Shown here piece by piece: positions 8,938-54,901 of a stretch of 64,000 nt of DNA. The stretch covers positions 32,001 to 96,000 of the IMG/VR virus record IMGVR_UViG_3300022890_000011. One strand, written 5' to 3'. The notes beneath the pieces were generated by a model. That model worked only from the letters and a program-made list of their open reading frames with translations, ran no database searches and was not told the DNA's origin. Numbering within the stretch: the stretch's first letter is position 1; every line of letters begins with the position of its first letter. This DNA comes from a virus. A program made the translations under genes and the position numbers.

Positions 8938-9390
8938 ATGAAATATCTTAAAGATTATAATTCATGGGATAATAAATTATTAAAAGAATTTTACGAAGAA
9001 ACAGATAATTTAGAAGAACTTAAAAAAAGATGTGAATATTTAATTGATAAGTTTGGAAAACCCTCACTTGGTGTACCTGATAAGGATTATTTAAGTATTT
9101 TGATACCATTATCAAATCATGAAATTATTGATTTTTTGTGTGATATTGAAAATATTAAATCTTTTTCTCTTGAAATTTTAAGACCACCTATTACACTAGA
9201 TTATAAATTTAAAATATATTTTTTAAATGAAAATAACCCTAACGATAACTATGAAATATTTGCAATTTCAAGAGAAAAAGATTTAATTTTAATTGATTCA
9301 TCATATGAACAATATAAAATTATTGAAAATATTATTTTATTTGGAGATGTTGAACAAAGAATAACTACAAATCAAATGGGTTTACTTTAA
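8938..9390 (+). CDS. Dual-tagged hypothetical protein (MKYLKDY... / ...NQMGLL)
   Basis: True start ATG 8938 directly after the upstream stop; both terminal motifs present. Confidence 0.65.
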   Translation: MKYLKDYNSWDNKLLKEFYEETDNLEELKKRCEYLIDKFGKPSLGVPDKDYLSILIPLSNHEIIDFLCDIENIKSFSLEILRPPITLDYKFKIYFLNENNPNDNYEIFAISREKDLILIDSSYEQYKIIENIILFGDVEQRITTNQMGLL

Positions 9391-9647
9391 CCTGTATTCG
9401 AAACTGTAGAACCAATAGGATTTTTACTTAATAACCCTTTAGTATATTCACCGAAAGTATTAACTGGTGGTATTTCTTTATCATCTTCTAAATTATTATG
9501 AATCTGTTTTCTTAATATTTCAAATTCTTCTGGTGTTAAATCTCTATTTAGTAATTCCATTTGTTTATCAACTGTGTGTTGAAGTATATCTTCATCAGAA
9601 GGTGTTATTTGAGTTTCAAATTGTTTATATGTTTTTATATGTTTCAT
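9387..9647 (-). CDS. Small CTS-tagged protein
   Basis: MKHIKTYKQFE; ATGA overlap with upstream gene. Confidence 0.6.
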   Translation of the reverse strand: MKHIKTYKQFETQITPSDEDILQHTVDKQMELLNRDLTPEEFEILRKQIHNNLEDDKEIPPVNTFGEYTKGLLSKNPIGSTVSNTG

Positions 9648-10057
9648 AATATTCCTAGATTAATTCCGTTTTTCGCCCATTCTAAATTTTTTAGAAGTGG
9701 TGTTAAAATTGTTTTTTTAAATTTTTTGATTTTTATTAAACTTTTCCCATCATAACCCCCAGAAGAAAAATTCATAGATGTTGGATTATTGAAATCTTTT
9801 TCTAACTTAGATAAATATTTTAGATTTTCTGTTAAAAATTCATCCAATCTTTTATAATCAGTGTGACTTTTTTTTATATTAGGTATCCATTCTATAAATG
9901 GTGCAGAATCAGACTCATCATCACGAAATATATAATATAAATTTGGGAAATCACCGCCAATATCGCCAATAAAAAAACAAAAATGTTTATGATAATATGA
10001 TTCTACCATTGGTAGTTTGTTAAATTCAAAATTTTCGTATGTTTTTAAATATTTCAT
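9644..10057 (-). CDS. Dual-tagged hypothetical protein (MKYLKTYENFE... / ...INLGIL)
   Basis: Terminal motifs. Confidence 0.65.
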   Translation of the reverse strand: MKYLKTYENFEFNKLPMVESYYHKHFCFFIGDIGGDFPNLYYIFRDDESDSAPFIEWIPNIKKSHTDYKRLDEFLTENLKYLSKLEKDFNNPTSMNFSSGGYDGKSLIKIKKFKKTILTPLLKNLEWAKNGINLGIL

Positions 10058-10060
10058 AAT

Positions 10061-10414
10061 TTAGTCTAGATCATCAATTGCATCCCAAAGTTTGTTTTGT
10101 TGTATTTTTTTATGTCTCCAATGAAAAGGATCATTTTCTTCCATTTCAATTGTATATTTTTCAAAGTTCTCAACAAAATCATTAGTCAATTTAGCTTGAT
10201 CTAATGCAAATAATAATTGTTCATAGAATTGATCTGGATTATAATCTTCTTCACAAGCCTCTATTTCAGGAAAAACATCTTTAAATGGTTCTCTACCATA
10301 CTTAAAATTAAGTAATTCTACTAACTGATAAACATCAAGAAACCCAATTATATCTTCCCATGAGTTAATATCTTCATATTCATATGCTTCATTAAATTTT
10401 CTTAAATGTTTCAT
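10061..10414 (-). CDS. CTS-tagged acidic protein
   Basis: MKHLRKFNE. Confidence 0.6.
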   Translation of the reverse strand: MKHLRKFNEAYEYEDINSWEDIIGFLDVYQLVELLNFKYGREPFKDVFPEIEACEEDYNPDQFYEQLLFALDQAKLTNDFVENFEKYTIEMEENDPFHWRHKKIQQNKLWDAIDDLD

Positions 10415-10980
10415 AAATTATATTTAATTTTAACTTCTTTTAAAGCTTCTTTATATGTATTATTTTGTGGATATTTATCACATAACATTTGTATAGATTG
10501 TGTAATTTTTAATTTATTTCCTTTAGATGACATACCTCTCCCAATAATAGTATATGAAAATCCATCAATAATTTTATTAGCTGATAAATTACAATTATTA
10601 ATATCTTCTAGATCTTCATTATTTGGTAATCTATATGATGTATATGTAAATATTTTAGGTTTACATTTTTCTATAATATCAGTTAAATCTAAAGGATAAA
10701 TAGCATTTAAATGTTCTGCACAAAATTGATATCTAGAATCTTTTTTCTCAAATTCTAATATAATTGTTTTATATGTGTCATTGTGTTCACTTATAAAATT
10801 GTCAAGATAACTTTTAATTTTATCATAATTTGTAAAATCTTTTTCAGATATTCTATTTTCTTCTGTAAGAATGTGCATCCAGTAGCTTCTAACATTATCT
10901 TCATAAGGCCATTCTGGTGGTTTAATACCTAATCCAGTCCAGTTATTATTTTCATTTAAAAATTGGTCAAATTTTTTCAT
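10411..10980 (-). CDS. CTS-tagged hypothetical protein
   Basis: MKKFDQFLNE ... KIKYNL. Confidence 0.6.
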   Translation of the reverse strand: MKKFDQFLNENNNWTGLGIKPPEWPYEDNVRSYWMHILTEENRISEKDFTNYDKIKSYLDNFISEHNDTYKTIILEFEKKDSRYQFCAEHLNAIYPLDLTDIIEKCKPKIFTYTSYRLPNNEDLEDINNCNLSANKIIDGFSYTIIGRGMSSKGNKLKITQSIQMLCDKYPQNNTYKEALKEVKIKYNL

Positions 10981-11864
10981 AATAAGTTCATTTTTTCAAT
11001 AAAAACATAAATATCCATACTTGTTTTACCTCTTACTCTTTTATGTTTATCTATTTCATCAGCAGTAAATGCTTCAATAGTTTTATATGTTCCTTTTAAT
11101 TCTTTGTTATCAAAGACTTTTACACTTTTATTTATAGTACCTATGGCACCAATTAAGAATATCCAATTATCACCTAGAACACTTTTCATAATAGATATTT
11201 TAAGTAATTTATCATCACCAACTTGCTTTCTAGTTTCTTGCATTAATTCAGTTGCCCAAGGATTGTAAAGATCTATCATTTGATCTGTATCTTTAATATC
11301 AATTTTAGTGATAGTAGTTTCTTTACCAATTGTTGTTTTTTCTTCTGATTCAATTTTACCAGATTGTATAAGTTTATTTTGATTTCTTCTTATTTCGTTA
11401 AAATCAGCTTTTTGTATTGTCCTTTCTGACATCACTCTATCATTCATTTTATAATCTTTGGGTGGTAATCTAAAGAAGTTTCCTGTGAATGTCATATGTT
11501 CTATATTTGATACATTGAATAACCTCCAAACTTTTTCATTACTTCCACCACCACTATGAGAGTAACCTTGAACATGCCATCCTCTTAAAAGTGTATTCTT
11601 TGTATTTTTATTAATACCTAAATTCATTGGATATATAACTCTTTCTCCACCTCCACCTTTATCATCTTCACCTTCATATTTTATTAGTATTATCATGCCA
11701 TTTTTAATAGCTTGAATAAGTTTTGCTTCATTATATGGTATTCTTTTATTGATAGGGAAATTTGGAACAATATCCATAATTTCTTGTGATTCAAATACTC
11801 TATATTTTGGAACGAAAATTGAATCGTTTTTTGTAGATTCTTTATGTTGTTTAAATTTTTTCAT
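10977..11864 (-). CDS. WYL-like (SH3-fold) domain protein with CTS-like N-terminus
   Basis: IKYEG...ERVIYPMNLG...LLRGW...WRLFNVSNI pattern resembles a WYL domain; ends EKMNLL. Confidence 0.5.
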   Translation of the reverse strand: MKKFKQHKESTKNDSIFVPKYRVFESQEIMDIVPNFPINKRIPYNEAKLIQAIKNGMIILIKYEGEDDKGGGGERVIYPMNLGINKNTKNTLLRGWHVQGYSHSGGGSNEKVWRLFNVSNIEHMTFTGNFFRLPPKDYKMNDRVMSERTIQKADFNEIRRNQNKLIQSGKIESEEKTTIGKETTITKIDIKDTDQMIDLYNPWATELMQETRKQVGDDKLLKISIMKSVLGDNWIFLIGAIGTINKSVKVFDNKELKGTYKTIEAFTADEIDKHKRVRGKTSMDIYVFIEKMNLL

Positions 11865-12969
11865 TAAAAATAAAATTCATTTTTTCTTCTATATTATCAG
11901 TATATTTAATCCTTAAAAGTTTAATATTTTTCTCTTCGCAGAATTTTGTTTTAATTTTATCGTGTTTTTTCACGTAGTTTAAATTTTCGACACCACCAAA
12001 ATATTCAATTGGTTTAAAATGTTGTATGCCATCATATTCTATACACATGTTTAAATTATCAAGATAAAAATCAAATGGTAATTTATTTTTATCAATACAA
12101 TCATTAAATTTTTTTTGTTTAGTATAGTTAAGATTGTTCTTTTTTAAAAATTTTGTTATAAATTTTTCTCCTTTACTTTCTTTACAAACAGGACAACCGT
12201 GTCCAGATAGATGTGAGTTTGGTGTTTGTTCAAATACACCATGTTTTTTACAAATAATTTTAACTTTTGTTGTTGCATTAAAATAATCAACCATTGAATA
12301 GTTATATTTATGTTCATGTGTTTTGATTGAATCTTTTATGAATTGTGTATTTGATTTTTTAAGTTTAATATGTGTGGATTCATTTCCACATAAATCACAA
12401 CCAAAACCTTTATGGTGATTTGATGGTGTTTGTTCAAAAATGCCATGTTTAGGACAAATTATTTTCACATTTACTTTTGCTGTAATATATTTTACTAAAA
12501 AATAATCGTATTTATTTCCGTGTATTTTTCTTGATTTATTAATGAAATGGTTTGAATCTTTCGAATATTTTGTTGAAAGATTTTCATATGAACATTTTTT
12601 ACAACCAGACATATTACTAATATGAGATTTTGGTGTTTGTTTAAAAATACCATGTTTTTTACATATAATTTTAACTTTGGTGTTGTAATTAATATAATTA
12701 ACTTTTGAATAATCGTATTTATCGCCATGTATATTTTTAGATTTTTCAATAAATTCTTCTGTCGTTAATTTTTTATTACCATTACATTTTGAGCAACCAC
12801 TTGTTCTTAAATGTTTATTTGGTGTTTGTTCAAAAATACCATGTATTTTACATATAATTTTAACTTTAGTATTATAATTAACATAATTTACTAAAGAGTA
12901 ATCATATTTATCACCATGTATTTTAATAGATTCATTTATGAATTCTTCTATTGTTTTCTTTTTTCTCAT
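11851..12969 (-). mobile_element. Free-standing homing-type endonuclease (repeated Zn-binding modules + Vsr/PD-(D/E)XK-like nuclease)
   Basis: Four repeats of HGDKYDYSxVxY..KVKIICxxHGxFEQTPxxH...GCxxC, then FDFYL...CIEYDGIQHF. Confidence 0.75.
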
Positions 12970-13001
12970 AATAATATATATTTTAATTTAAAAATGAAAT
13001 A

Positions 13002-13772: not shown

Positions 13773-14243
13773 ATGATTATAAATTTTAATAATTTTATAA
13801 ATGAAAAATTAGATATTTCTGATATTGAATTATATAATACTACTATGTATGATATTGAAACTGAAATTACAAATTTAGAATATGAAATTGAAGAATTAAA
13901 AACAAAAAAAGAAGAATTCAAGGATCTACATAAGAAATTATTTTTAGAAATTATAGATCTAACAGTTAAATATGGTGAAAAATTAGATTCAGATTGTTAT
14001 AATTTAAAAATTAAAGGTATAGGAGAGTTTGATAAAATAACAATATATTTAGAAAAAGAAACAAATATTGAGGATTCTTATATAGAATTAGAAACATTTA
14101 AAAATAATAAACCTGGACCTAGTGCATCAGGTAGTGTTTATGATTTTGAAGTAGATGGTCTTGAAATTTTATATAAATATTTTTGCAATTTACCAGAAGA
14201 CTTAACACCTTATTTAGAAGCAGGAAAAATGGGACTAATGTAA
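13773..14243 (+). CDS. Dual-tagged hypothetical protein (MIINFNNFINE... / ...EAGKMGLM)
   Basis: Terminal motifs. Confidence 0.65.
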   Translation: MIINFNNFINEKLDISDIELYNTTMYDIETEITNLEYEIEELKTKKEEFKDLHKKLFLEIIDLTVKYGEKLDSDCYNLKIKGIGEFDKITIYLEKETNIEDSYIELETFKNNKPGPSASGSVYDFEVDGLEILYKYFCNLPEDLTPYLEAGKMGLM

Positions 14244-29580: not shown

Positions 29581-29626
29581 TGTTTTATATTTTTAATATA
29601 TAATGGTGTTAAAAATAAAATTACTG

Positions 29627-30817
29627 ATGAAACATTTAAAAACATATGATGATTTAATAAATGAATCAATATTTGATTTTGGTTTTCTTAAAGGTGTTAA
29701 AGATTTTGTTTCAAATTTTTTTAGTGGAAAAGCAAATGCTAAAGAGATTACTATTAATTTAACAAATGCATTGAGAAATTATCAAAAAGAAGTATTACAC
29801 AATCCTTATAAACTTGATAGATTATCTATTAATAGTATGTTGAAAAAAATTAAAGATATAGTTGGTGAAGAATTATTAATTGATCTTAATTTAGATTCAT
29901 TTTTCAGGGGACTTTATAGTGTATCTGTTTTAAAAGGAGATAGACATGAAAATATTATAGATTATTTCAATTCTTATATTGATTTATTATCACAAAGAGT
30001 ACAAAAATTATATAAGAAAAAGAAAGATGTTGATTATGAAGAAGAAGAATTTGAAGAAGTAAAAAAATTGAAGAAAAAAGCCATTCAAAAAATGACTAAT
30101 AAAGAGTTTAGAAAGAAAAAAACTCCTCTTCAAATTGAATTATTAAAATTACAAAATTGGTTATATAGAAAAGATAAAAGATTAGCTGTTCTTTTTGAAG
30201 GTAGAGATGCTGCAGGAAAAGGTTCAGCAATCAAGACCATTATTGAATTTCTAGACCCAAAATTATTTAAAGTGGCTACGTTTGGTATACCAACAGAAGA
30301 AGAAAAATTAAATTGGTTTGAAAGATATACTAAGAAATTACCAAAACCTGGTAAAATATCATTTTTTGATAGAAGTTGGTATAATAGAGCAGTAAATGAC
30401 CCTGTTATGGGTTATTGTACAAAAGAACAATATAATGAATTTATAGAAGAAGTTATTCCATTTGAAGATCAATTAATTGATAATGGATTATATTTATTTA
30501 AATTTTGGTTCTCAGTGAGCCAAGAAACTCAAGAATTAAGGTTTCAAATTAGACAAGCAAATCCATTAAAGACCTGGAAATTTAGTGAAAATGATTTATT
30601 AACTATGAATAAATGGGATAAATTTACAGCATATAAAGAGAGAATGTTTTTACAAACTTCTACAGAAAAATCACCTTGGGTAATTGTTGATTCTAATGAT
30701 AAGAAATTGGCTCAAATTAACATAATGAAATATATTTTAGAACAGATACCATATAAAAATAAAGATGTTAAAAGAGTTGGTCATCCATTACCAGAAATCG
30801 TAATACCTTTGAAATGA
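29627..30817 (+). CDS. ppk2: Polyphosphate kinase 2 with N-terminal extension carrying a CTS-like tag
   Basis: FEGRDAAGKG Walker A and FDRSWYNR motif; likely start MKHLKTYDDLINE at 29627. Confidence 0.9.
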   Translation: MKHLKTYDDLINESIFDFGFLKGVKDFVSNFFSGKANAKEITINLTNALRNYQKEVLHNPYKLDRLSINSMLKKIKDIVGEELLIDLNLDSFFRGLYSVSVLKGDRHENIIDYFNSYIDLLSQRVQKLYKKKKDVDYEEEEFEEVKKLKKKAIQKMTNKEFRKKKTPLQIELLKLQNWLYRKDKRLAVLFEGRDAAGKGSAIKTIIEFLDPKLFKVATFGIPTEEEKLNWFERYTKKLPKPGKISFFDRSWYNRAVNDPVMGYCTKEQYNEFIEEVIPFEDQLIDNGLYLFKFWFSVSQETQELRFQIRQANPLKTWKFSENDLLTMNKWDKFTAYKERMFLQTSTEKSPWVIVDSNDKKLAQINIMKYILEQIPYKNKDVKRVGHPLPEIVIPLK

Positions 30818-31230
30818 AATATTTAAAAAAATTTGAAGATATTATTACTACTACTTATGATAATATTGATATACCTATTGATTATACAGATGATATATTA
30901 TTTGATTTAGATTTTGAAACATTTAAATCAGTTTTAAATCTTATAAATATTGGTAGGCCACTTAATGCTTTAAAAAGTATTAAACATAAATTAGATTATG
31001 GTTTAAAACAATGCAAAGATTTGATGGGGAGAATGTGTTCTCTATTAGGTTATGATAGATTTAATATTAAATCTAATGAAAATGATCAATTTAATTATCA
31101 AGATGAAATAATAGATAAATATCCAGAATTAATATCATTAATTAGTAATTCAGAAAGATTTAATTTATTACCAGAAATAAGAGAAATATATGATGATTTA
31201 ATTCAAGGAAGTGAGTTGGGATTATTGTAA
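30814..31230 (+). CDS. Dual-tagged hypothetical protein (MKYLKKFE... / ...GSELGLL)
   Basis: Terminal motifs. Confidence 0.65.
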   Translation: MKYLKKFEDIITTTYDNIDIPIDYTDDILFDLDFETFKSVLNLINIGRPLNALKSIKHKLDYGLKQCKDLMGRMCSLLGYDRFNIKSNENDQFNYQDEIIDKYPELISLISNSERFNLLPEIREIYDDLIQGSELGLL

Positions 31231-32152: not shown

Positions 32153-32776
32153 ATGTTAACATATAAACTATTTTTAGAATCCACGCATTGTTTTAATTGC
32201 GTGGATTGTCATAAAAAGATAAAAGTAAATACCAAAGATTATTATATGGTACATGATCATATTTGGGAAGAAGGAGTACAAGAAGAAAATAGAGGTAATT
32301 TAATATGTTTAGATTGTTTAGAAAAAAGATTGGGTAGGAAGTTAAAGATAGAAGATTTTACAGATTATCCTGTTAATGAACCAATTAAAGATGAATTGAA
32401 TGAAGGTTTATTTACTGATTATAAAAAGAAGTTTAAGACAAAATACGAAGATTTATTAAAAGAACACTTACATGAAGATATAATTTTTATTGTTAAAGTA
32501 ATACAACGGAAAGGAATTAAACAAATAACTAAAAGATTAAGTGAAATACATAAAGTTAAAGCCAAAAATATTTTGGAAGTTTATTTAAAATTTCCTAAAA
32601 TATCACATATTTATTCTTATATGTCATATCATGATGAACATACGATGAATACACAAAAATTAAGAAATTTGATTCTTCTTTTAAAAGAACAAAAAACTCT
32701 TGGTGAAGAAATTTATTTCACAGAAAGTAATAATGGCTTGTGTATAAAATTATATATTGATAAAAATGGGAAATAA
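32153..32776 (+). CDS. CTS-tagged protein with Cys4 zinc-binding domain
   Basis: MLTYKLFLE; CVDC...YYMVHDHIW...LICLDCLEKRLGR. Confidence 0.6.
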   Translation: MLTYKLFLESTHCFNCVDCHKKIKVNTKDYYMVHDHIWEEGVQEENRGNLICLDCLEKRLGRKLKIEDFTDYPVNEPIKDELNEGLFTDYKKKFKTKYEDLLKEHLHEDIIFIVKVIQRKGIKQITKRLSEIHKVKAKNILEVYLKFPKISHIYSYMSYHDEHTMNTQKLRNLILLLKEQKTLGEEIYFTESNNGLCIKLYIDKNGK

Positions 32777-33098
32777 AATAAATCCAATTGCAATTAAATC
32801 GCTAAAAAAATTTTTAGAAGAATATTTTAAAAGATTTAGTATCTCACCTTTTTTAAGTTTTACACATGGTTCTTATTTTATTCAATGTAGAGTTGAAAAT
32901 AGTTTGAATTTTGATGAAACTCTTAAACTTATTGATATGGTTGAAACTTTAAATAGAGAAAACAATCTTTTACATCCTGCTATATTAGGTTGTATTGTCA
33001 ATTACCATCAACCTTCTATTGAATTAAGATTTTCAATAGATGCAGTAGAAACAAAATTTAGACATTTAATTGAAGCTGATAAAATGAATTTAATATAA
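32766..33098 (+). CDS. Hypothetical protein with C-terminal EADKMNLI tag
   Basis: Likely ATG 32766; variant of the C-terminal tag. Confidence 0.55.
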   Translation: MGNKINPIAIKSLKKFLEEYFKRFSISPFLSFTHGSYFIQCRVENSLNFDETLKLIDMVETLNRENNLLHPAILGCIVNYHQPSIELRFSIDAVETKFRHLIEADKMNLI

Positions 33099-34600: not shown

Positions 34601-37600
34601 TTATCTTATTACTGTTACAGCACCAACTTCTACATGTTCTACACCTAAATGGTCTTTAAATATACAATACCAAGCATATACACCATTTTTAACATAATCA
34701 TTTATTTTACCATCCCATGTTTCTTTTATATCAAAGGATTCAAAAATCATTTCACCCCATCTATCATATATGAGTAAATTAAAGTCATTATTTATATTTT
34801 TGCCATATACTCTAAAATAATCATTTATACCATCATTGTCTGGTGAAAATGCTGTTGGTGCATAAAATGTGTATTGGTCTTGAACCTGTATATCTGTGTA
34901 TATTGTATCTCTACAATCATGATTTGTTGTAACTATTAGTTGAAGTATATAAGTTCCAGAATAATATGGATATACATGTATTGGGTTAACAATCGTAGAA
35001 TATTTACCATCACCAAAAATCCAATAATTTGTGACATTTAATAATGACATATTATTTATATAAATAGTTGGATTTATTATATTTACTATTTCATTATCAA
35101 CAATAAATTTAGCAGTTGGTAATGGATATACAGTTATCATATTAGTAATTGTGTTTGTATTTGAACAACCTTCTGATGAAGTTACAGTTAATGATATATC
35201 ATATACACCATAATCTTCAAATGTGTATGTTGGTGAATTACTATATGAAAAATTATCTCCAAAATCCCAAACATATGTCTGATTACTATCTAGACTTATT
35301 TCAAGAAAATTAACAGTAAGTGGTTGACACCCGCTCATAATATTAGATGACATGCTTATTGTAGGTTTATCATACACATTTATTGTATATGATTGTGTAG
35401 CTGTTGAACCACAATTGTCTGTTACAGTAAAATTATATGTTGTTGTTTGACTAGGATATGTAATATACGGTGAACTTTCATTATTATTATTTATTAGTAT
35501 TGTATATGGTGGTACTCCTAATGAAGGTGAAATGTTTATAGTTGCAGGTTCCCCTGGACAAACATAATCAGTATTTGAAAATATTGATAGTTGTACTGAT
35601 GTAGAAACTCCTATTGTTGTTGAAACATAATTACTTAAACAACCATTAGCATCTTCAATATGAACTACATATGTTGTTTCTATTATAGGTGATACATCAA
35701 TATTATTTATGGTTGTACTTGTGTTACTCCAAACATAATTGAATGGTAGTATACCACCAATACTTGATACTGAAATATTTGTACTTTGACCATTACATAT
35801 AGTGTGATCAGGTGTCATTGAAATAATTATTTCTGTTGGTTCATCTATTGTAAAATTAGTTGTAATTGAACAATCATTTAAATCTGTTATTATAATTGTA
35901 TACATACCAGGTGTTAAATTATTAAAATTTCCTGTTGATTGTGATGTACCATTAATAGAATATGTTAATGGTTGAACTCCTCCAGAAGCATTAATATTTA
36001 TATTTCCATTATTATATCCATAACAAGTTATATTTGTTGATGATTGAGTATTTATTATAATTTCAGGTGGTTCGTTTATTATTATTGGACTTATTATAGT
36101 ACAACCATTTAAATCTGTTATCAAAACATCATAAGTATTTGCACTTAATCCAAAGAAACAACCACTTAAATTTGTAACTATTCCTATATTATATGTTAAT
36201 GGTGGTAAACCACCAGAGCCAGTTATTGTAATTGTACCATTATTATTTCCAAAACAATCAACATTAGTTGAAGATATAGAATTAACAGTTAATATAGTGT
36301 TTTCATATATTGTTGAAGTTATTGAATCAGTACAACCATTTGAATCTGTTACTGTTACATTTATATCGCCATCACAAAGATTTATAGCTGTTTGTGTGGT
36401 TTGTGAATCATTCCAAAAATATGTATAGTTTGGTGTTCCACCATTTACTGTTACTGTAGCATCACCATCACAAAAACCGAAACAAGTAATATTTGTTGTA
36501 GAAATTGTTGCAGTTGGTTCTTCAAATATTTCAATATCAAATATAGTTACATCATTACAAGAATTTAGTATTGCCGTTTGTGTAATTGAATATATGCCAG
36601 GTGTGTTCCAAGTTATTCCAGTTGGATTTTCTGTTGTATCGTTTAATATTGAACCACCTGGAAAAGACCAAGTCCAATGTATAATTCCTCCAGTATCACC
36701 AGTATTCGTAAAATCAAATGAATTACCATTTAAACATTGATTAGGGTTTGTAATAAAACCTGATATAACATTACCAGTAGCACCAACAGTAACTATTTCT
36801 GTTTCAGTACAACCATTATCATCTGTAATTGTGATAATATATGGTCCTGCTGATAAACTATCAAACACATTAGTAGAAACTTGTCCTGAGCCTATATCAT
36901 ATAATAATGGTGGTGTTCCGCCATTAACTATAATAGTTACACTACCATCAGATAGACCACAAGTTTCTGGTGTGTTTGTTGATGTTATAGTTAATAATAT
37001 AGGATCAATTATAGTTATACTTGTAGATCCTGTACAACCCATATCATCAGTTACTATTACAGTATAAGTTCCTGCATTTAATCCTGTTATATTTTGAGTT
37101 GTGTCTGTATTTGACCACAAATAAGTATAAGGACCTGTTCCTGTTGTCATATTTAGTATTCCGCCTGTTCCATCAAAACTCCCACAACATAAAGGATTAG
37201 TAAATATAGAATCAACTATTAAATCAGGTAAAACAGTAACAGTAGTTGGAAATCGACAACTTACAGGCATCCATCCACATGATAAGCCAGGATTAACTAT
37301 ATCAACTGTTGATGTTTGGCAAATCCAGTCAATTTCTGTATTAGTATCTGTATTCCCTATTCTTTGTAAACTTGTATTTACTCCAGAACAAGGTAAAATG
37401 GCACCATTACCAATCCACTCTGGTCCTATTGTAATATTAAAACCATTAATTGTGGTATTCATACTGGCTATTTCCGCAGCAGACCATCCCCAAACACAAA
37501 AATCTACAACATTACCAACATCATCAATAATAATTGACCAACTTTGACTTGTTCCATTCCAAAAAATATTATTTCCCCAGTAATTAGCTGGATATCCAGA

Positions 37601-38653
37601 ATCATCACATCTCCAAACAACTGAACATGCAGTAAATGAAGAAGGTAGTTGCCAAAGTATTGAGTTTACAGAATTTATATCAGAATAAGAATCGCTAACT
37701 GCAGCAACCCAACCTGTAGTATTAATAGTTGTAGAATATAAATTAGAAATTTCAAGATAATCTTCACTACCAGAACCTCCCATAAATCCTTCTAATCCAG
37801 ATTCTGTGATTAGTATTGTACCAACTGTAGATGTTTGTCCTGTGGTTTGTGTCCAATATGTTGTAGTTGTTGTTAATGGAGGTGTTGTATAAACACCTGT
37901 TGTATCTAAAAGATTACCACCAATTTGGTCACTCCACCATTCATAATTTCCTAAAAGACCAGTTGCTGTAAGTGTGGTAAAATCGCCTGCACAAAGAGTT
38001 GTATTTCCAGTAATAGTAGGTGCTGGAATTACTTCAATTAAAAATGTATCTGAAACAATAATTCCTGGACAAACATCACATCTAACTTCGATAGTAAAAG
38101 TTGTAGTAGTTGGAGGAGAAGCATAATAAACGGATGTTGTGCTCCATGGTTGTATCACAGTTGCACCGTCTAAAATTTGATATTCATAATTGCCTGTACA
38201 ACCACCATTAATGGTAAAATTAATCGTATCTTGACCACCACCACAATTCATTATTACTTGTGGGTCTGGAGTAACAGAAGTTGGTCCACATGGGGGAGGT
38301 GGACAGTTTGCGATAACATTATTAATATTTGCACTAACACTACCACTGCCAACTAGAGTCCCCTGACTATCAGTTAATGTAAAATGACATTCTGAGGTCC
38401 ATGAACCAATAGGGTTAAATATTATATCTATATCATCTCCAAGATTAACAGGAACATCATAACAGACAGGTCCTGACCCAGTAGTGAAAGCAGGGCCGTA
38501 AGTTGCAACTAATGCCCCATTTACAAAAACATCGATTGTGTTACCATTCCAGCCATCACCATAGTCATCTGTTAGACAAACCTCATAAATGCATTGACTA
38601 TTAACAATTAAAGTACTTAAAAATATTGCAATTAAAAAAATTATTTTTTTCAT
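34601..38653 (-). CDS. Secreted SprB-repeat/PKD adhesin-like protein with T9SS type-B (gliding-motility-associated) CTD
   Basis: Sec signal peptide; GGTPPYxY..W..GxYxVxVTDxNGC repeats; PKD WDFGD; C-terminal FYAPTAFSPDNDGINDYF...IYDRWGE...G.VTVIR. Confidence 0.85.
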   Translation of the reverse strand: MKKIIFLIAIFLSTLIVNSQCIYEVCLTDDYGDGWNGNTIDVFVNGALVATYGPAFTTGSGPVCYDVPVNLGDDIDIIFNPIGSWTSECHFTLTDSQGTLVGSGSVSANINNVIANCPPPPCGPTSVTPDPQVIMNCGGGQDTINFTINGGCTGNYEYQILDGATVIQPWSTTSVYYASPPTTTTFTIEVRCDVCPGIIVSDTFLIEVIPAPTITGNTTLCAGDFTTLTATGLLGNYEWWSDQIGGNLLDTTGVYTTPPLTTTTTYWTQTTGQTSTVGTILITESGLEGFMGGSGSEDYLEISNLYSTTINTTGWVAAVSDSYSDINSVNSILWQLPSSFTACSVVWRCDDSGYPANYWGNNIFWNGTSQSWSIIIDDVGNVVDFCVWGWSAAEIASMNTTINGFNITIGPEWIGNGAILPCSGVNTSLQRIGNTDTNTEIDWICQTSTVDIVNPGLSCGWMPVSCRFPTTVTVLPDLIVDSIFTNPLCCGSFDGTGGILNMTTGTGPYTYLWSNTDTTQNITGLNAGTYTVIVTDDMGCTGSTSITIIDPILLTITSTNTPETCGLSDGSVTIIVNGGTPPLLYDIGSGQVSTNVFDSLSAGPYIITITDDNGCTETEIVTVGATGNVISGFITNPNQCLNGNSFDFTNTGDTGGIIHWTWSFPGGSILNDTTENPTGITWNTPGIYSITQTAILNSCNDVTIFDIEIFEEPTATISTTNITCFGFCDGDATVTVNGGTPNYTYFWNDSQTTQTAINLCDGDINVTVTDSNGCTDSITSTIYENTILTVNSISSTNVDCFGNNNGTITITGSGGLPPLTYNIGIVTNLSGCFFGLSANTYDVLITDLNGCTIISPIIINEPPEIIINTQSSTNITCYGYNNGNININASGGVQPLTYSINGTSQSTGNFNNLTPGMYTIIITDLNDCSITTNFTIDEPTEIIISMTPDHTICNGQSTNISVSSIGGILPFNYVWSNTSTTINNIDVSPIIETTYVVHIEDANGCLSNYVSTTIGVSTSVQLSIFSNTDYVCPGEPATINISPSLGVPPYTILINNNNESSPYITYPSQTTTYNFTVTDNCGSTATQSYTINVYDKPTISMSSNIMSGCQPLTVNFLEISLDSNQTYVWDFGDNFSYSNSPTYTFEDYGVYDISLTVTSSEGCSNTNTITNMITVYPLPTAKFIVDNEIVNIINPTIYINNMSLLNVTNYWIFGDGKYSTIVNPIHVYPYYSGTYILQLIVTTNHDCRDTIYTDIQVQDQYTFYAPTAFSPDNDGINDYFRVYGKNINNDFNLLIYDRWGEMIFESFDIKETWDGKINDYVKNGVYAWYCIFKDHLGVEHVEVGAVTVIR

Positions 38654-38676: not shown

Positions 38677-41600
38677 TTATCTAATTAGTGTTACTACACC
38701 TGTATGTTCATTATAGACATCGTTATCTAATTTAAATTTACATAACCAAGTATATACACCATTTTTTACTATTTCTTTACTATTATTTCTTACACGACCG
38801 TTCCAACCTTCATTTATATCATTAGTTTCAAATATAATTTCTCCCCATCTATCAAACACATATAATGTAAAATTACTTTTTGTATTTATACCATTACCAA
38901 AGACTCTAAAATAATCATTAATTCCATCAAAATCTGGTGAAAATGCTGTAGGTGCATAAAACGTATATTCATTTGTAATAGTTATTTCCATGTATACAGT
39001 ATCTCTACAACCTTTATCACTTTCCGCAATTAATTGTACATTATATGTACCTGTTGGGTATGTTGGATAAACATGATATGGATTTATCATAGTTGAACCT
39101 GATTCATCTCCAAAATCCCAGTAATATTTTATTGCACCTTCTGAATAATTATTAAAATATATAGTAGGATTTATAATACTAACTATTTGTGGATCTGCTA
39201 TAAATGCGGCTTTCGGTACTTTATATACATATATTAGATTATTTATTGTTTGTGTATTTACACAATTATTTGAATCAGATACTTGTAAAGTAACATCATA
39301 TATACCACTTTCATTATATTCGTATATTGGACTATTACTATAAGATACCGAGTTATCTCCAAAATTCCATAACAAATTACCATTATTTGAACTATTAAAT
39401 GATACTGTTAATGGTACACAACCACTTATTATATCACTTGAAAATGAAACTATAGGTAAATCATATACTGTAAAATCAATACTTGCATCATCAATAGAAC
39501 CACACATATCAGTTATTGTAAATGTTATAGTTTCACTTTGATTAGGATAATGAAAATATGGAGTAGTTATTGTATTACCATTATAAGTAATTACATATGG
39601 TGGTACTCCAGAAGAGCCAACTAATTCTATATATACTTTTTCTCCGATACAAAGACTTGCATCAGTAGGTATTACTGTTAAATTAACACCTGGTTGTATA
39701 TTAACAACTGTTGAAACTACATTACCAAGACAGCCATTAACGTCTGTAACTTGACATACATAACTTGTATTTGATGTTGGAGAAACTATAATATTTGGTG
39801 TATTATCCATATGAGCCCATAAATAATTATATGGTGGGTTACCGCCAATAATGGTAACAGAAATATTTGCGTTTGCACCATTGCATATTGTTTGATTAGG
39901 TGTAATATTTACAATTATTTCATCTGGTTCAATTAATGTAAATGGTGTAGTAATTGAACATCCATTATCATCTGTTATAGTTATATTATATATATCAGGA
40001 GATAAATTAACAAAATTACCACTTGTTGATGAATAAGAACCAAAATTATATGTTAATGTACCTATACCACCACTCGCATTAATAGTTATTGTTCCGTCAT
40101 CATAATTATAACAAGTTGAATTTGTAAATGATTGGTTATCAATAACTATTGCATTTGGTTCAGTAATTATAATTTCTTGTGTCACTGAACAATTATTACA
40201 ATCAGTTATAGTAACATTATATGTATCAGCACCTAAACCAAAAAATTGTCCTGTTTGATTAGTTATACCTCCAAGTGAGTATGTAATAGGAGAACAACCA
40301 CCTGATGCAATAGTAGTTATTGTTCCATCGATATTACCATTACAAGAAGGTTCTGTAAATAGAAAATTATCTATATTGATTGGATTTGCTGCATTAACAA
40401 TTCCATTATTTATTGATGTGCAATTATTTGCGTCAGTTATTGTAACATCATAATTATTAGGACATAAACCAATTATTGTTTGTGTTATATCTGTAGTATT
40501 CCATTCATATGTATAAGGATTATTTCCATTTAATGGATTTGCTGTTGCTGTTCCATCACATAAATTTACACAAGTTTCATCTGTAGTTATAACTGTTACA
40601 AATGGCATTTCAAACACTTCAATTGTTAATGTATCAGTATCGTTACAACCTCCAAGATGTGTTGTTTGCGTTACATCATATTGTCCGGGAATAGTCCATG
40701 TTACGCCTGTTGGATTTTCATTTGCTGAAGACGACGGTGTTCCACCTGAAAAAGACCATGTCCATGTAATTCCACCACCTGTATCTCCTGTATTTGTAAA
40801 ATTAAAAGAATTACCTATTAAACATTGATCTATACTGGTAGTAAAACCTGAAGCAACAGAACCACTTGTACCTACTGTTACTAATTCTGTGATAGTGCAA
40901 CCATTAACATCTGTAATTGTAATGGTGTATGGACCTGCAAGAAGACTTGTAAAATTGCCTGTTGCCTGTCCGCCTGAGCCAATATTATAGCTTAAAGCTC
41001 CTGTTCCTCCTGTTGCAGTAACAGATATTGCACCATCTGATGATCCACATACTTCCGGTGTAGAACCCGAAGAAGATACTGTTATTTCTGGAGGAATTGT
41101 AACACTGATATTTATTACGTTCGGTGCACAAGTTGGATCGGTTACTGTTAAAGTAATATTTGGCGTTGAACCAGATGTGGAATAAGTTACAGTATGTGGT
41201 CCAACTGTATTTGCTGTAGCTAGAGTTGCCCCTGTTCCAAAATTCCATACATAAGTAGCACCAGGGTCAACAGTTCCCGGAACATAAGTAAATGTAATAG
41301 GTGAATCATAACAGTCTGGTGTCGTTGCAGTAATACTACCGGGAGGCGTTACACAACCCATGCAAGGAGCAGGAGCAGTATATGTTATAGTATAATTACA
41401 ACCATCATCAGTAAAATAAGAGTATAAAGTATGTGTGAGACCATCAGCCGGAATACCAGTTATACTAAAATTAGTAGGACTAAAAAAGTTTGGAGTAGGT
41501 ATAAAAGAATCAAAAAAACCGGGACCTGCATCGTCTTCAATAATTAAACTTCCTGTTGCAGGTGGATTAATATATACAATCGTACCTGTAATATCATAAG

Positions 41601-42159
41601 TATTTGTAACAGGATCACATGGACCAACATTTACTGTAATATTTGTCATTGTACAAGGAACAACAATACTGCAATCAGTTTCGCCGGTACTTGTTCCAGA
41701 TGAAAATTCCACATCAGTTGTACTATTAGAATAATTTGTTAAAAGAAACATATAAAATTCACCAACTTGGGCATTTGGAATATAACAATCTTCCACAGAC
41801 GCTGTGCTATAGCTACAATCTACAGTGTTACCAGCTGTTAATCCTGCTGTACATGCACCTGTTGCAGTAGTAAATGGTCCCCAACATATAAAATCAATAT
41901 CATACACACCAGGAGTTGATTCCATATGAATATTAATATTTCCCGCTACAGAAATCTGTAAAAAATACCAAACCGGATTTGGTTGTGTTAACAAACAACC
42001 ATAGTCTGGTCCTGTTTCTGAAGATGTTCCGGTTGCTAAAGGATAGTTATAAACCGAATCTGTACAAAATGGCTCTGCATCATTGCAAAAGGGTTGCTGT
42101 GCGTAACTTGTTATTCCAAATACTAATAGTAATATTAGTAAATTAATTATTTTTTTCAT
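38677..42159 (-). CDS. Paralogous SprB-repeat/PKD protein with T9SS type-B CTD
   Basis: Signal peptide; same repeat types; FYAPTAFSPDFDGINDYF...VFDRWGE...GVVTLIR. Confidence 0.85.
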   Translation of the reverse strand: MKKIINLLILLLVFGITSYAQQPFCNDAEPFCTDSVYNYPLATGTSSETGPDYGCLLTQPNPVWYFLQISVAGNINIHMESTPGVYDIDFICWGPFTTATGACTAGLTAGNTVDCSYSTASVEDCYIPNAQVGEFYMFLLTNYSNSTTDVEFSSGTSTGETDCSIVVPCTMTNITVNVGPCDPVTNTYDITGTIVYINPPATGSLIIEDDAGPGFFDSFIPTPNFFSPTNFSITGIPADGLTHTLYSYFTDDGCNYTITYTAPAPCMGCVTPPGSITATTPDCYDSPITFTYVPGTVDPGATYVWNFGTGATLATANTVGPHTVTYSTSGSTPNITLTVTDPTCAPNVINISVTIPPEITVSSSGSTPEVCGSSDGAISVTATGGTGALSYNIGSGGQATGNFTSLLAGPYTITITDVNGCTITELVTVGTSGSVASGFTTSIDQCLIGNSFNFTNTGDTGGGITWTWSFSGGTPSSSANENPTGVTWTIPGQYDVTQTTHLGGCNDTDTLTIEVFEMPFVTVITTDETCVNLCDGTATANPLNGNNPYTYEWNTTDITQTIIGLCPNNYDVTITDANNCTSINNGIVNAANPINIDNFLFTEPSCNGNIDGTITTIASGGCSPITYSLGGITNQTGQFFGLGADTYNVTITDCNNCSVTQEIIITEPNAIVIDNQSFTNSTCYNYDDGTITINASGGIGTLTYNFGSYSSTSGNFVNLSPDIYNITITDDNGCSITTPFTLIEPDEIIVNITPNQTICNGANANISVTIIGGNPPYNYLWAHMDNTPNIIVSPTSNTSYVCQVTDVNGCLGNVVSTVVNIQPGVNLTVIPTDASLCIGEKVYIELVGSSGVPPYVITYNGNTITTPYFHYPNQSETITFTITDMCGSIDDASIDFTVYDLPIVSFSSDIISGCVPLTVSFNSSNNGNLLWNFGDNSVSYSNSPIYEYNESGIYDVTLQVSDSNNCVNTQTINNLIYVYKVPKAAFIADPQIVSIINPTIYFNNYSEGAIKYYWDFGDESGSTMINPYHVYPTYPTGTYNVQLIAESDKGCRDTVYMEITITNEYTFYAPTAFSPDFDGINDYFRVFGNGINTKSNFTLYVFDRWGEIIFETNDINEGWNGRVRNNSKEIVKNGVYTWLCKFKLDNDVYNEHTGVVTLIR

Positions 42160-43411: not shown

Positions 43412-43866
43412 TTACATTAATCCTAATTTATCAGCTTCCATTGTTGAATCATCTATTATTGAATCCATTAAAAATGATGTCAATTCAGACGAATTTATTG
43501 AAGATATTTTGTCGTGTTTATGAAATTTAAATAACCATCTTCATTTTCTTTAATTTCAATGAGTGAGTCCCAATCAAAATCAGGTAATTCTTCAACAACA
43601 TCAATATCATATTCATAGTATTTTGAATTATTAGATAGTAAGAGGATTCAAGAATTTTTATTTTCTTTAGGATATTGAATTAATATTTTATGATTTTTTA
43701 ATTTTCCTGGTATTCTTAATATAAAGATATCATGGTTTTTGTCTGAATCTTCTTCACTAAAAGTACTGAATTTTTCTAATTCCTTGATCCTGTTTATTAA
43801 TTCTTCATTTAGGTTTTTTATTTGATGATTATCATTGAATTCATAAAATTTAGTCTTCATCTTCAT
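43412..43866 (-). pseudogene. Disrupted dual-tagged gene (MKTKFYEFND... / ...MEADKLGLM)
   Basis: Frame continues past the TGA at 43648-43650 (ILLLSNNSKYYEYDIDVVEELPDFDW...), then a frameshift near 43530 leads to ...TMEADKLGLM* at 43412. Confidence 0.6.
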
Positions 43867-52166: not shown

Positions 52167-52247
52167 TAGAATTTTTTATCTTTAAAAATATATATGTGAA
52201 AATTTTTTTTTTGTTTTTTATTAGAGGAGAAAGAATTTGTTCTCAGA

Positions 52248-52820
52248 CTACAATAACCCCATAGAAATTGAGTCAATTATTTGTTTACAATCTGGATCTT
52301 TTAAAATATTTGGATTTATATCTAGATCATTATTCATTAATAGTTTAAAAAATTCTAAGTTATTATTTATTAAATATTTTTGTATTACTTCTGTTTTAAA
52401 AAAATTACTTGAATATAAATTTTGATACATTCTATATGAAATTAATTTATCTAAACTAACTCTTTTATCTAATAAATAAATAAATTTTAAAACGTCTGAA
52501 TTATCAAATGCATCTACAACACCTAATTCTAAATCACTTTTAAGATAATATTCTGATACTTTCCATTTCTTACCACAATCTTCGGAAAAACAATCTTCAA
52601 TAAATACATTATCTCCAATAAATCTACCTTTTTTAAAATCTATTTTATTATCATATTTTTTCATAGATTCTATGAATTGTTCACCATGTAACCATCTAAT
52701 TAAATAAGATAAATTTGGCATTGAATTTGTAATATCTCTATCAAGAGGATCTTCAAATACAACACTAAAATGATCATGTTTTGCCCATTTATCTTCATTA
52801 TATTTCTTTAAATGATTCAT
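52248..52820 (-). CDS. Dual-tagged protein (MNHLKKYNE... / ...SISMGLL)
   Basis: Terminal motifs. Confidence 0.65.
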   Translation of the reverse strand: MNHLKKYNEDKWAKHDHFSVVFEDPLDRDITNSMPNLSYLIRWLHGEQFIESMKKYDNKIDFKKGRFIGDNVFIEDCFSEDCGKKWKVSEYYLKSDLELGVVDAFDNSDVLKFIYLLDKRVSLDKLISYRMYQNLYSSNFFKTEVIQKYLINNNLEFFKLLMNNDLDINPNILKDPDCKQIIDSISMGLL

Positions 52821-52981
52821 TATTTATTATATATATTTAAATTTCCTTTGAAAAAAGAATTAATTAGAAGTTAAAATAATATCATAATCTTGCACCAATT
52901 ACTTAATTGGTGGAATTTAGTTGCTGAAAATTCTACTAGTCGCTGAATTAGACGTTACTAACTATTAAATATTCATTTCAT

Positions 52982-53065
52982 TTAGTTTTTTATATCAACG
53001 AGAGCTTTATTATCAAAATCAATTTCGTCATAGATTTTTTCGTTATATTTTTTTAAGTATTTCAT
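52982..53065 (-). pseudogene. 27-aa CTS stub MKYLKKYNEKIYDEIDFDNKALVDIKN
   Basis: ATGA overlap with the upstream LGLL* gene; early stop. Confidence 0.55.
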
Positions 53066-53502
53066 AATAGTCCTAATTCACCTCCTTGTAGTATATATTC
53101 ATATTTATTTTCTTCTACCCAATTATAAAAATTATATTGAGTAGGATGATGTCCATTTGGATCTGAAAAATATATATCTTCTGTTTCAGCTGTTAATGTA
53201 TAATATAATGGTTCACTTTCTACACTTCCTTCATTTATTACAATAAACCAAATAAAATTTGGTTCTTTTTCAGCTTTAATTTTAATGTAATTTAAAAATT
53301 GTTGTTTTGTTCCTGATGTCATGTTTCTATTTCCAAAAACTATGATATCATCATTATAATGTTCACACATTAATTTAATTGCATTAACAATGTCTTTTCC
53401 TTTTATAAATTTATATCCCCATGATTTTTGATGATTTGTTGGTTTATCATTTTGTATAGGTTTCGATTTAAAAAAGCCTTCGTATGTTTTTAGATTATTC
53501 AT
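53062..53502 (-). CDS. Dual-tagged protein (MNNLKTYE... / ...GGELGLL)
   Basis: Terminal motifs. Confidence 0.65.
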   Translation of the reverse strand: MNNLKTYEGFFKSKPIQNDKPTNHQKSWGYKFIKGKDIVNAIKLMCEHYNDDIIVFGNRNMTSGTKQQFLNYIKIKAEKEPNFIWFIVINEGSVESEPLYYTLTAETEDIYFSDPNGHHPTQYNFYNWVEENKYEYILQGGELGLL

Positions 53503-53508
53503 TTAAAT

Positions 53509-53530
53509 TATATATTAATTTTAATATATA
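53509..53530. promoter_or_regulatory. Back-to-back TTAATATATA putative late promoters
   Basis: tatatattaa-tt-ttaatatata between divergent tagged genes. Confidence 0.6.
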
Positions 53531-53536
53531 ACAATA

Positions 53537-53962
53537 ATGAAATCATATGAAAAATATATAGAATTTAATAAAAAGATTGAATCTTTAAAAAGTGAAATGT
53601 GTATTGAACTTTATAATGAGTTATTAAAAATGAAAAAGTTTGGTGTTAAACCAGAGAGTAATAGTCAAGGTTTAGATCTTATAATACCTTTTAAAGTTAA
53701 AATTTATGATAATGATTATAATGGATTTGGTATTTATTATCACAGGGTACAAGGTAGAGAAAATATTAGTATATATGTTGGTATTGTAGATGATATTGAT
53801 AATTTTGGTTGGGAGGGGTTAATTATAACAGTTTCTGTTAAAGGTTATATTCAAGGAGATTTGATTGAAAATGAACAAAATAAACAATTTAAAATAATAT
53901 TTAAGTTTTTAATGGAAGATGCTCTGCCATATTTAGAGTCAAGAAATTTAGGATTAATGTAA
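53537..53962 (+). CDS. Dual-tagged protein (MKSYEKYIE... / ...SRNLGLM)
   Basis: Terminal motifs. Confidence 0.65.
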   Translation: MKSYEKYIEFNKKIESLKSEMCIELYNELLKMKKFGVKPESNSQGLDLIIPFKVKIYDNDYNGFGIYYHRVQGRENISIYVGIVDDIDNFGWEGLIITVSVKGYIQGDLIENEQNKQFKIIFKFLMEDALPYLESRNLGLM

Positions 53963-54502
53963 ATGAAGTATTTAAAAACATATTCAGAAAATCAATTAAT
54001 TAAAGACCATTTAAGTGATAATGGTAAAACATTAGATTTATCTAATTTAGATTTAACTGAATTACCTGAATTACCTGAAGGATTAGAAAGATTATATTGT
54101 GGTAATAACCAATTACCTGAATTACCTGAATTACTTAAAGAATTAAAAGTATTATATTGTTATAATAACCAATTAACTAAATTACCTGAATTACCTGAAG
54201 GATTAGAAAGATTATATTGTTATTATAACCAATTAACTAAATTACCTGAATTACCTAAAGGATTAAAAAGATTATATTGTTATTATAACCAATTAACTAA
54301 ATTACCTGAATTACCTAAAGGGTTAGAAGTATTATCTTGTTATTATAACCAATTAACTAAATTACCTGAATTACCTAAAGGGTTAAAAATATTAGATTGT
54401 GATTATAACCAATTAACATATAAAGATTTAGATGGTTATTGGAAATGGTTTTGGAAAGAAAATCCAGACCTTCATAATGCAAATAAAATGGGATTATATT
54501 AA
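53963..54502 (+). CDS. Dual-tagged leucine-rich-repeat protein (short 20-aa bacterial LRR)
   Basis: Six LPELPxGLxxLYCxxNQLTK repeats encoded by ~60-bp tandem DNA repeats; MKYLKTYSE ... NKMGLY. Confidence 0.85.
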   Translation: MKYLKTYSENQLIKDHLSDNGKTLDLSNLDLTELPELPEGLERLYCGNNQLPELPELLKELKVLYCYNNQLTKLPELPEGLERLYCYYNQLTKLPELPKGLKRLYCYYNQLTKLPELPKGLEVLSCYYNQLTKLPELPKGLKILDCDYNQLTYKDLDGYWKWFWKENPDLHNANKMGLY

Positions 54503-54901
54503 ATGAAGTATTTAAAAACATATGAAGAGTTGTTATATGTAAATTATAAGTATGTTATAGTTTGTAAAAATGAAAAAGAATTTGTTGATGTTCAAAAATA
54601 TATTAAAAAGAATGTACCACAGATAAAATTCAATTTTCAAAAATCTTATTATGATGTTAAAAATGATTTTATTAGTAGTTCAGATTTTAGTAGTAACAGA
54701 ACAATAGATGAAGTTTATCCTAATTTGAAAGATGAAAACTCACCTATTTTTCTTTATATTTTACCAGATTTAGAAATTATTACAGGTGATATTGATAAGT
54801 GGATTGAATATTATGATAAAAAAGGAATACCAGTTATAAAAGGCAATGATATTGAACAATTATCAGTATTTATAGAATCAAAAAAATTAGGACTAATGTA
54901 A
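54503..54901 (+). CDS. Dual-tagged protein (MKYLKTYEE... / ...SKKLGLM)
   Basis: Terminal motifs. Confidence 0.65.
   Translation: MKYLKTYEELLYVNYKYVIVCKNEKEFVDVQKYIKKNVPQIKFNFQKSYYDVKNDFISSSDFSSNRTIDEVYPNLKDENSPIFLYILPDLEIITGDIDKWIEYYDKKGIPVIKGNDIEQLSVFIESKKLGLM

Follow-up and report, generated by a model that had tools for sequence, protein, structure and literature searches.

Among the systems that come closest to the one described here, SspB is an adaptor with a ClpX-binding tail, and the ankyrin/F-box proteins of poxviruses work with SCF ligases. In Family 1 encapsulins, C-terminal peptides of the GSLxIGSLK type load cargo into shells of the HK97 fold (PMC10960027), and the internal proteins of phage T4 carry a portable capsid targeting sequence (CTS) of about 10 N-terminal residues that is removed by the prohead protease (PMC7697877). 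Here we analyse a C-terminal [ML]-G-L-[LM]-stop motif (the tail) in a virus DNA stretch of 64,000 nucleotides (the window), which comprises bases 32001-96000 of IMG/VR virus record IMGVR_UViG_3300022890_000011 (G000; 166.6 kb, 25% guanine plus cytosine (GC), estimated 58% complete). The initial annotation of the window had noted this tail on 11 unrelated open reading frames (ORFs), with two looser variants, and had coupled it to an N-terminal leader of the MKYLKTY type, regarded as a capsid tag, in a two-ended sorting code. For comparison, the related records G001 (348 kb, 569 genes) and G003 (330 kb, 591 genes) were fetched whole, and G002 is a 344-kb sister record. We found that the tail is selected at the protein level and that its type follows the phage, not the protein family, and the reading that we favour, a docking or recognition peptide common to all bearers, has in our estimate a probability of about 0.5.

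In its strict form, [ML]G[LI][LMIY]-stop, the motif ends 9 of the 84 genes of the window (0.02 expected) and 25 of the 247 genes of G000 (0.06 expected by chance); under a column-shuffle null the mean was 0.67 and the highest count 4. Because the same pattern occurs inside proteins 11 times where 12.9 are expected, the enrichment, about 400-fold, is purely C-terminal, and in every bearer the tail stands at the extreme C-terminus, unlike the N-terminal T4-type CTS. Allowing Asn at the Gly position raises the count to 29-32 of 247 genes (about 1 in 8) in G000, and bearers make up about 95-105 of the 569 G001 genes and 101 of the 591 G003 genes, about 1 gene in 6 or 17%, so that across these phages 12-18% of all genes are tagged. 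The conserved stretch reads [DE][DE][LI]xx[YLF][IL]E[AGS]NK[ML]GL[LM] and belongs to a module spanning 16-28 residues; many bearers have an extra aromatic-rich helix upstream of the motif, which gives a 25-28-residue helix-turn-helix look. In G003 the tail ends K[FY]N[LI], and an alignment anchored on Lys matches it column for column to the KMGLL form. The last residue is L, M, I, Y or F, the penultimate one L, I or V (Asn in the FNL type), and the spacing to the end is fixed per lineage; with regard to the (L/I)-x-E sites of prohead proteases, Glu at -8 is present in only about 50% of tags, with I or L before it at -9, and alone is suggestive of nothing.

Models of two unrelated bearers, built from family alignments (predicted local distance difference test (pLDDT) scores of 82 and 94), both place the tail in a confident helix (pLDDT about 90) that ends 3-4 residues before the C-terminus. 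Gly or Asn with a hydrophobic residue next to it classically caps the C-terminal end of a helix, which explains why Gly and Asn interchange in the tail. The N-leader is modelled at low confidence, with residues 1-10 below 50 in a model with an SH3-like fold and residues 1-5 below 50 in that of a leucine-rich-repeat (LRR) protein (53963..54502); in the latter the block of residues 1-10 has a mean pLDDT of 52, and helices at 156-166 and 168-175 are followed by a non-helical MGLY. The tail profile matched no chain among solved structures. Searched against 1.84 billion proteins, it had a sole match, P0123, a secreted-looking repeat protein of 1650 residues with FIEGAKMGLK nine times in internal helices, which we judged to be chance; a profile of 30 columns cannot reach significance for single tags.

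All 11 C-termini of the initial annotation and both loose variants are present as it had given them. Its count of ten leader-bearing ORFs among the 11 was too high: 7 are clear, 2 are variants, one (32766) has none and one is a pseudogene. The genes are as follows.

8938..9390 (+): tagged gene, 150 aa; N-leader MKYLKDYN, C-tail TTNQMGLL; the next gene is convergent.
9644..10057 (-): tagged gene, 137 aa; N-leader MKYLKTYE, C-tail NGINLGIL; the stop overlaps the start of an N-leader-only gene at 9387-9647.
10411..10980 (-): loose-variant gene, 189 aa; ends KIKYNL, the KYNL form typical for the sister lineage.
10977..11864 (-): loose-variant gene, 295 aa; ends IEKMNLL, Asn replacing Gly.
13773..14243 (+): tagged gene, 156 aa; variant leader MIINFNNFINE, C-tail YLEAGKMGLM; no downstream gene start.
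30814..31230 (+): tagged gene, 138 aa; leader MKYLKKFE, C-tail LIQGSELGLL; the start overlaps the end of a polyphosphate kinase 2 (PPK2) gene.
32766..33098 (+): tagged gene, 110 aa; C-tail LIEADKMNLI, no N-leader; the gene after it, at 33098, has the N-leader only.
43412..43483 (-): remnant tail of a frameshifted, decayed gene; STMEADKLGLM-stop.
52248..52820 (-): tagged gene, 190 aa; leader MNHLKKYNE, C-tail DSISMGLL, Gly codon GGG.
53062..53502 (-): tagged gene, 146 aa; leader MNNLKTYEG, C-tail LQGGELGLL; next comes a leader-only stub of 27 aa at 52982-53065.
53537..53962 (+): tagged gene, 141 aa; variant leader MKSYEKYIEF, C-tail YLESRNLGLM.
53963..54502 (+): LRR protein, 179 aa; leader MKYLKTYS, C-tail NANKMGLY.
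54503..54901 (+): tagged gene, 132 aa; leader MKYLKTYE, C-tail FIESKKLGLM; next comes a leader-only stub of 9 codons, MKYLKTYED-stop, at 54901-54930.

The two stubs (54901-54930, + strand; 52982-53065, - strand) and the frameshifted copy (43412-43483, - strand) are decayed cassettes, and genes of these arrays undergo birth and death. Other genes lie among or beside them: the PPK2 gene is at 29603-30817 (+), its stop overlapping a tagged gene; an HNH homing endonuclease (11851-12969, -) sits amid tagged genes; and an Mre11-Rad50 fusion of 1248 residues is encoded at 55549-59295 (+).

The proteins that share this tail have unrelated cores. With their ends trimmed, the G000 bearers are mutually unrelated by BLASTP save for one four-member LRR family; a pool of 240 bearers resolves into about 180 BLAST-distinct core families, and in a profile-profile comparison of cores only 1 of 153 family pairs scored above 90% probability. 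Ankyrin cores were found in at least 8 bearers, and the other identified cores comprise LRRs, a class I methyltransferase, a DMP19-like domain, an ExoX-like_C domain and an SH3/chromo-barrel-like fold; a fold search of the PDB and BFVD with the SH3-like family model returned a weak chromo-barrel/SH3-like likeness only and no functional lead. A homologue search with one window bearer found a single relative, so that cores of this kind are orphans. Bearers are small (median 114-138 residues) and without membrane-like segments, and their net charge per 100 residues is about -4 vs 0 for other small proteins in G001 and G003, a difference that is smaller in G000 (-2.6 vs -2.3). Their genes cluster in an array-rich, hyperplastic region of roughly 140 kb, and once a family has acquired the tail its paralogues retain it. 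As a set, the bearers are accessory proteins, very numerous and quick to turn over, that are small, soluble and acidic.

Conservation of the tail lies in the protein. In G001, codon identity between same-residue tag pairs across families was about that expected from codon usage at the Gly (0.48 vs 0.46), the next Leu (0.50 vs 0.47) and the Lys (0.78 vs 0.77), and was in excess at the last tail codon only. All four Gly codons and several Leu codons occur in tags, and substitutions keep the class of the residue (A/G/S, M/L, G/N, L/I/M/Y) and not the bases. Over the 12 residues before the defining four, the 42 G001 tags without a downstream start, at convergent or intergenic gene ends, are conserved equally to the 63 coupled tags (+9.7 vs -21 bits for the null, p=2.5e-24). 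Upstream of G000 genes there is no Shine-Dalgarno signal; G is depleted there, and GGA/AGGA is not enriched. Because, in addition, a genome holds its tail type constant and not its codons, we conclude that the tail is selected at the protein level. Neither its nucleotide conservation nor any dependence on a downstream start marks the tail as a ribosome-binding or translational-coupling element. The initial annotation had held that the codons vary and that the tail is not merely a ribosome-binding site for the next gene, and on both points it was correct; nor did we see the better conservation of DNA than of protein that it had named as a sign to the contrary.

The tail is confined to a low-GC (19-26%) Mahaphage-type subclade seen only as metagenomic contigs, since the published relatives tested as complete genomes, LR756500-504, LR745206 and Lak-B5, gave background counts for both the GLL and FNL patterns against reversed-pattern controls. 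The same controls gave 2 against 51 matches to the GLL-type pattern in G002, and 0 against 14 to the FNL-type pattern in a further record, G005. Tenacibaculum phage PTm1 is the closest relative in culture whose head module is annotated; an ORF-by-ORF scan of it found neither tail nor leader, so that it is of no use as a test system for them. Within the subclade, tail type follows the phage and not the protein family: 105 of 105 tags in G001 are of the GLL type and 101 of 103 in G003 of the FNL type, and in all three core families common to both lineages the tail switches with the genome (LRR, 13+2 members; ankyrin, 1+10; another, 1+1). G000 holds the intermediates KMNLL, KLNLL and KYNL, and the sister lineage has the forms KFNL and KYNI. 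Because this switch is lineage-wide and occurs without DNA homogenisation, the simplest reading would be one common reader that has drifted together with its roughly 100 ligands. The lineage-specific variants, which the initial annotation had missed along with the scale of tagging, are the strongest clue to function.

To follow the N-leader, N-termini were scored by a matrix trained on strict MKYLKTY-type starts, with the 99th percentile of internal positions as threshold. After removal of paralogues, leader and tail are associated in G000 (odds ratio 16, p=1e-9), G001 (odds ratio 5, p=7e-8) and G003 (odds ratio 24, p=8e-26), a link which the initial annotation had proposed and whose absence it had named as a refutation. 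It had also held the tail to occur almost only on leader-bearing proteins, and this is not the case: families with both tags, with the tail only and with the leader only number 17, 12 and 16 in G000, 28, 53 and 40 in G001, and 44, 27 and 28 in G003. Of its two-ended sorting code, then, what stands is a modular, protein-level tail linked to the leader, and what falls is the near-exclusiveness of the link; as a capsid tag the leader is putative. The leader is older and wider than the tail. Higher-GC contigs have the leader and lack the tail, and in LR756501 about 30 genes start with a leader variant, MI[KT]K[FY]..FE, with no C-tail; several of these end in DPYGEEEW (e.g., record positions 130076-130471 and 501253-501699; loci L119-L155), which may be another lineage's C-terminal label.

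Neither a capsid nor a prohead-protease gene was found in G000, a 58%-complete record. G002, which has the same tail, encodes a capsid protein of the Gp23 type (PF07068, E=4.7e-25) as well as an 811-residue protease-scaffold fusion, whose match to S77-like, T4-type proteases is weak (E=5.7e-6) and below the family cut-off. By tblastn the capsid protein is 64% identical to that of LR756501 (a 735-kb phage genome), 49-51% to those of 634-642-kb genomes, 29% to those of Prevotella Lak phages and 27% to that of Tenacibaculum phage PTm1; LR756501, the 634-642-kb genomes and the other capsid relatives belong to the Mahaphage clade. Hosts predicted for this clade are Bacteroidetes (PMC7162821). A Bacteroidota host agrees with the two very large proteins (1350 and 1160 residues) encoded at 34601-38653 (-) and 38677-42159 (-) of the window, both of which contain SprB and PKD repeats as well as the type IX secretion signal domain CHU_C, with the absence of a Shine-Dalgarno signal, and with the enrichment of the Bacteroidota -7 box TAnnTTTG 5' of genes. 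The tag-bearing phages are megaphages of the Mahaphage type that have a T4-like capsid protein and a putative prohead protease and probably infect Bacteroidota. A giant-virus origin was rejected, no capsid gene of nucleocytoplasmic large DNA viruses having been found; the operon-style overlaps, the type IX secretion signal domain and the host-type promoter boxes indicate a Bacteroidota phage. G001 and G002, from different samples, hold identical matches at shifted coordinates (an AAA+ gene, for instance, lies at G001:66107 in the one and at G002:151582 in the other). The records overlap, and a single phage of roughly 700 kb is probably the source of both.

The [ML]-G-L-[LM]-stop motif is the tip of a helical module of 16-28 residues, made of a helix, a Gly/Asn cap and one or two hydrophobic residues, with the consensus [DE][LI]xx[YF][IL]E[AGS]xK[ML]GL[LM]-COOH. 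We propose that this module would serve as a docking or recognition peptide bound by one partner co-evolving with the phage. It would act as an address or adaptor label outside each protein's own fold, and the N-leader would be a second, independent signal. One could envision the reader in the prohead interior (the scaffold-protease core or the gp23-like shell), with the tail as a cargo-loading signal; two doubly tagged genes directly follow the G002 capsid operon, and the head genes of the clade are T4-like. We offer this candidate tentatively. A phage Clp machine, considered below, ranks lower, and the rest of the odds go to another hub. As a wider scheme, the phage may run a sorting code of its own, in which a C-label and an N-leader on about 100 unrelated effector-like proteins per genome are read by a phage-encoded receptor and the combination of labels sets the fate of each protein, e.g., capsid pre-loading for injection as opposed to action or timed removal in the cell. 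This is possible, if on balance doubtful; if true, it would be a viral counterpart to the signal-peptide systems of cells.

Several observations weigh against a shared docking peptide or against the capsid as its reader. Some nucleotide-level influence exists: the Gly of the tail is encoded by GGA in about 70% of cases, compared with about 30% of Gly codons overall (G000, G001), and more often so in coupled tags, whose stop overlaps or abuts the start of the next gene (87% vs 50% in G000, Fisher p=0.09; 78% vs 56% in G001, p=0.04). The leader-tail link may be one of inheritance and not of function, since the genes sit in tandem arrays and could share it by descent. Phyletic profiling for a gene that tag-bearing genomes have and tag-less ones lack did not identify the partner of the tail; it gave 4 candidates, the best of them a TnpB/IS605 transposase, which we rejected, and the partial records share too few genes for such profiling to succeed. 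Against a role as capsid cargo, the bearers are acidic and, at the share of all genes given above, very many; two thirds of the tagged G001 families lack the N-leader; and bearers do not have the bipartite upstream box of the capsid and protease genes.

The transposase-like gene, of the TnpB/IS605 OrfB type with an OrfB_IS605 and a Cas12f1-like TNB domain, lies at G000:126087-127301 (L176:16087-17301), with copies in G001 and G003 and none in LR756501. A promoter-like ATATATAWY box peaks 15-25 nt before start codons in G000, G001, G003 and LR756501, and is no commoner before tagged genes than before others (18% vs 22%). The capsid and protease genes have, in addition, a GGAAAAAA(T/C)AG..TTTT box conserved upstream of them (L114:5330-5466, L114:7903-8009); a shared "late" promoter with head genes was rejected because few head genes, and no others, have this bipartite box. 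Tagged genes are preceded by the host-type TAnnTTTG box less often (7%) than other genes are (17%, p=0.02). The protease-scaffold fusions, of 807-811 residues (L114:5467-7902, - strand; LR756501 73913-76336), end in a conserved helix, QLDRFYNRLKNI and QIEAYLKRLQR, respectively, whose hydrophobic spacing is loosely like that of the tail, in a match too weak to call.

Of the other explanations, the one that survives best makes the tail a degron or adaptor tail for a phage Clp machine (a ClpA/C-like unfoldase with ClpP), so that tagged proteins would be degraded at set times, or would use binding domains of the ankyrin, LRR or DNA-mimic-like kind to deliver host proteins for destruction, as the SspB tail does with ClpX and poxvirus ankyrin/F-box proteins do with SCF ligases. 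The tail is strictly terminal and its last residues are hydrophobic, many of the larger bearers are protein-binding repeat proteins, and a phage-encoded reader would explain why the tail varies by lineage. G000 encodes both a bona fide ClpP (PF00574, E=1e-63) and a 668-residue ClpA/C-type double AAA+ protein without an N-domain, outside the window:

G000:113199-115205 (L176:3199-5205): ClpA/C-type AAA+ gene.
G000:128107-128766 (L176:18107-18766): ClpP gene.

However, ClpP is present in 2-3 copies in the tag-less LR756502, LR756504, LR745206, LR756500 and Lak-B5 (it is absent from LR756501), and the AAA+ protein has a 42%-identical homologue in the tag-less LR756501, so there is no phyletic link between tail and Clp, and the co-distribution of ClpP was rejected as support. 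Known ClpX/ClpA degrons of the ssrA type are, moreover, short and unstructured, whereas the conserved module here has 16-28 residues and is predicted as a confident helix to 3-4 residues from its end. To our knowledge, no phage tags one sixth of its proteome with such protease signals. We therefore think a Clp reader unlikely.

Somewhat less probable again is that there is no dedicated reader, and that one cassette frame has been copied in tandem arrays while its middle diverged or was replaced and its ends were kept for a folding cap, stability or expression. The concentration of tandem arrays in the hyperplastic region, the birth and death seen in the stubs and the frameshifted copy, the retention of the tail by paralogues within a family, and the fact that helices commonly end in Gly/Asn plus a hydrophobic residue would all fit. 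Yet LRR, ankyrin, methyltransferase and SH3-like cores cannot derive from one ancestor, the motif is never enriched internally, and no generic cap would change from KFNL to KMGLL along a phage lineage, in about 100 genes at once, without DNA homogenisation, of which none was seen. The weakest alternative, that the junction of tail and leader is conserved as DNA or RNA, either as a recombination handle for cassette shuffling or as a translational-coupling signal, draws on junction DNA (tail end plus MKYLKTY start) that repeats across the genome at 79-94% identity, on the many tag stops that overlap the next start as ATGA or TAATG, and on the GGA bias in coupled tags, but is largely refuted as the cause of tail conservation by the codon, substitution, uncoupled-tag and Shine-Dalgarno results above and is very improbable, even if junction repeats of roughly 40 nt could, as a by-product, help cassettes to move.

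A shared docking peptide would matter beyond this window. Mahaphage-type phages have the largest known phage genomes, with most of their genes lacking an assigned function, and one label common to 12-18% of proteins is a handle on hundreds of orphan genes at once. The identity of the reader would reveal both the destination (the capsid, a protease or another hub) and the use of the ankyrin, LRR and DNA-mimic-like arsenal. The lineage variants of the tail may not cross-react, and the lineage-wide switch is a clean natural experiment in the co-evolution of motif and receptor.

How the tail relates to the known systems can now be stated. In agreement with the initial annotation, which knew of no equivalent, literature searched for the motifs, the clade or such tags held no description of the motif, the leader or a tag system of this kind. 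Poxvirus ankyrin/PRANC proteins, like other multigene families whose docking end is constant, share with the bearers a plan in which the binding domains (ankyrin, LRR) vary and a C-terminal docking element stays the same, and also the large, lineage-specific, fast-turnover arrays in accessory regions; PRANC, however, folds into an F-box-like domain whose partner is eukaryotic Skp1, it has no homology to the tail, and here the host is bacterial and most bearers are not repeat proteins. The ssrA/SspB signals are, like the tail, strictly C-terminal with a non-polar end, and a two-part layout of upstream segment and tip is conceivable for both, but there is no sequence likeness, the tail is predicted to be helical and not disordered, and an AAA+ protease does not co-distribute with it, ClpP being found in five tag-less relatives.

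The two capsid systems come nearer. In T4, too, small phage proteins that are hypervariable and otherwise unrelated carry a portable terminal tag, a capsid gene and a putative prohead-protease gene of the T4 type occur in the clade, and the N-leader MKYLKTYE resembles the T4 targeting sequence in place and style. The T4 tag is nevertheless N-terminal, and a C-terminal counterpart has not been described in T4, which tags a handful of proteins and whose abundant internal proteins are basic, where about 100 acidic ones are tagged here. Encapsulin cargo peptides are, like the tail (K-[ML]-G-L-[LM]-COOH), short, modular and C-terminal, with Leu/Ile round Gly and a Lys nearby, and are portable among unrelated proteins; their reader is the inner face of an HK97-fold shell, the fold of the clade's gp23-like capsid protein. 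The consensus differs, though, with no profile match and no GSLxIGSLK; encapsulin peptides have 7-12 residues in extended conformation on flexible linkers, as opposed to the confident helix predicted here before the tip; and one or a few cargo types lie beside the shell gene, as opposed to about 100 genes in scattered arrays, where two tagged genes follow the G002 capsid operon and the other roughly 50-100 per genome are in distant arrays. Once its reader is known, a short portable tail of this sort could be put to use in protein targeting, a purpose that encapsulin peptides and the T4 tag serve already. Portable terminal targeting peptides are already known; a C-terminal one on a sixth of a phage's genes, with variants by lineage, is a new form of them.

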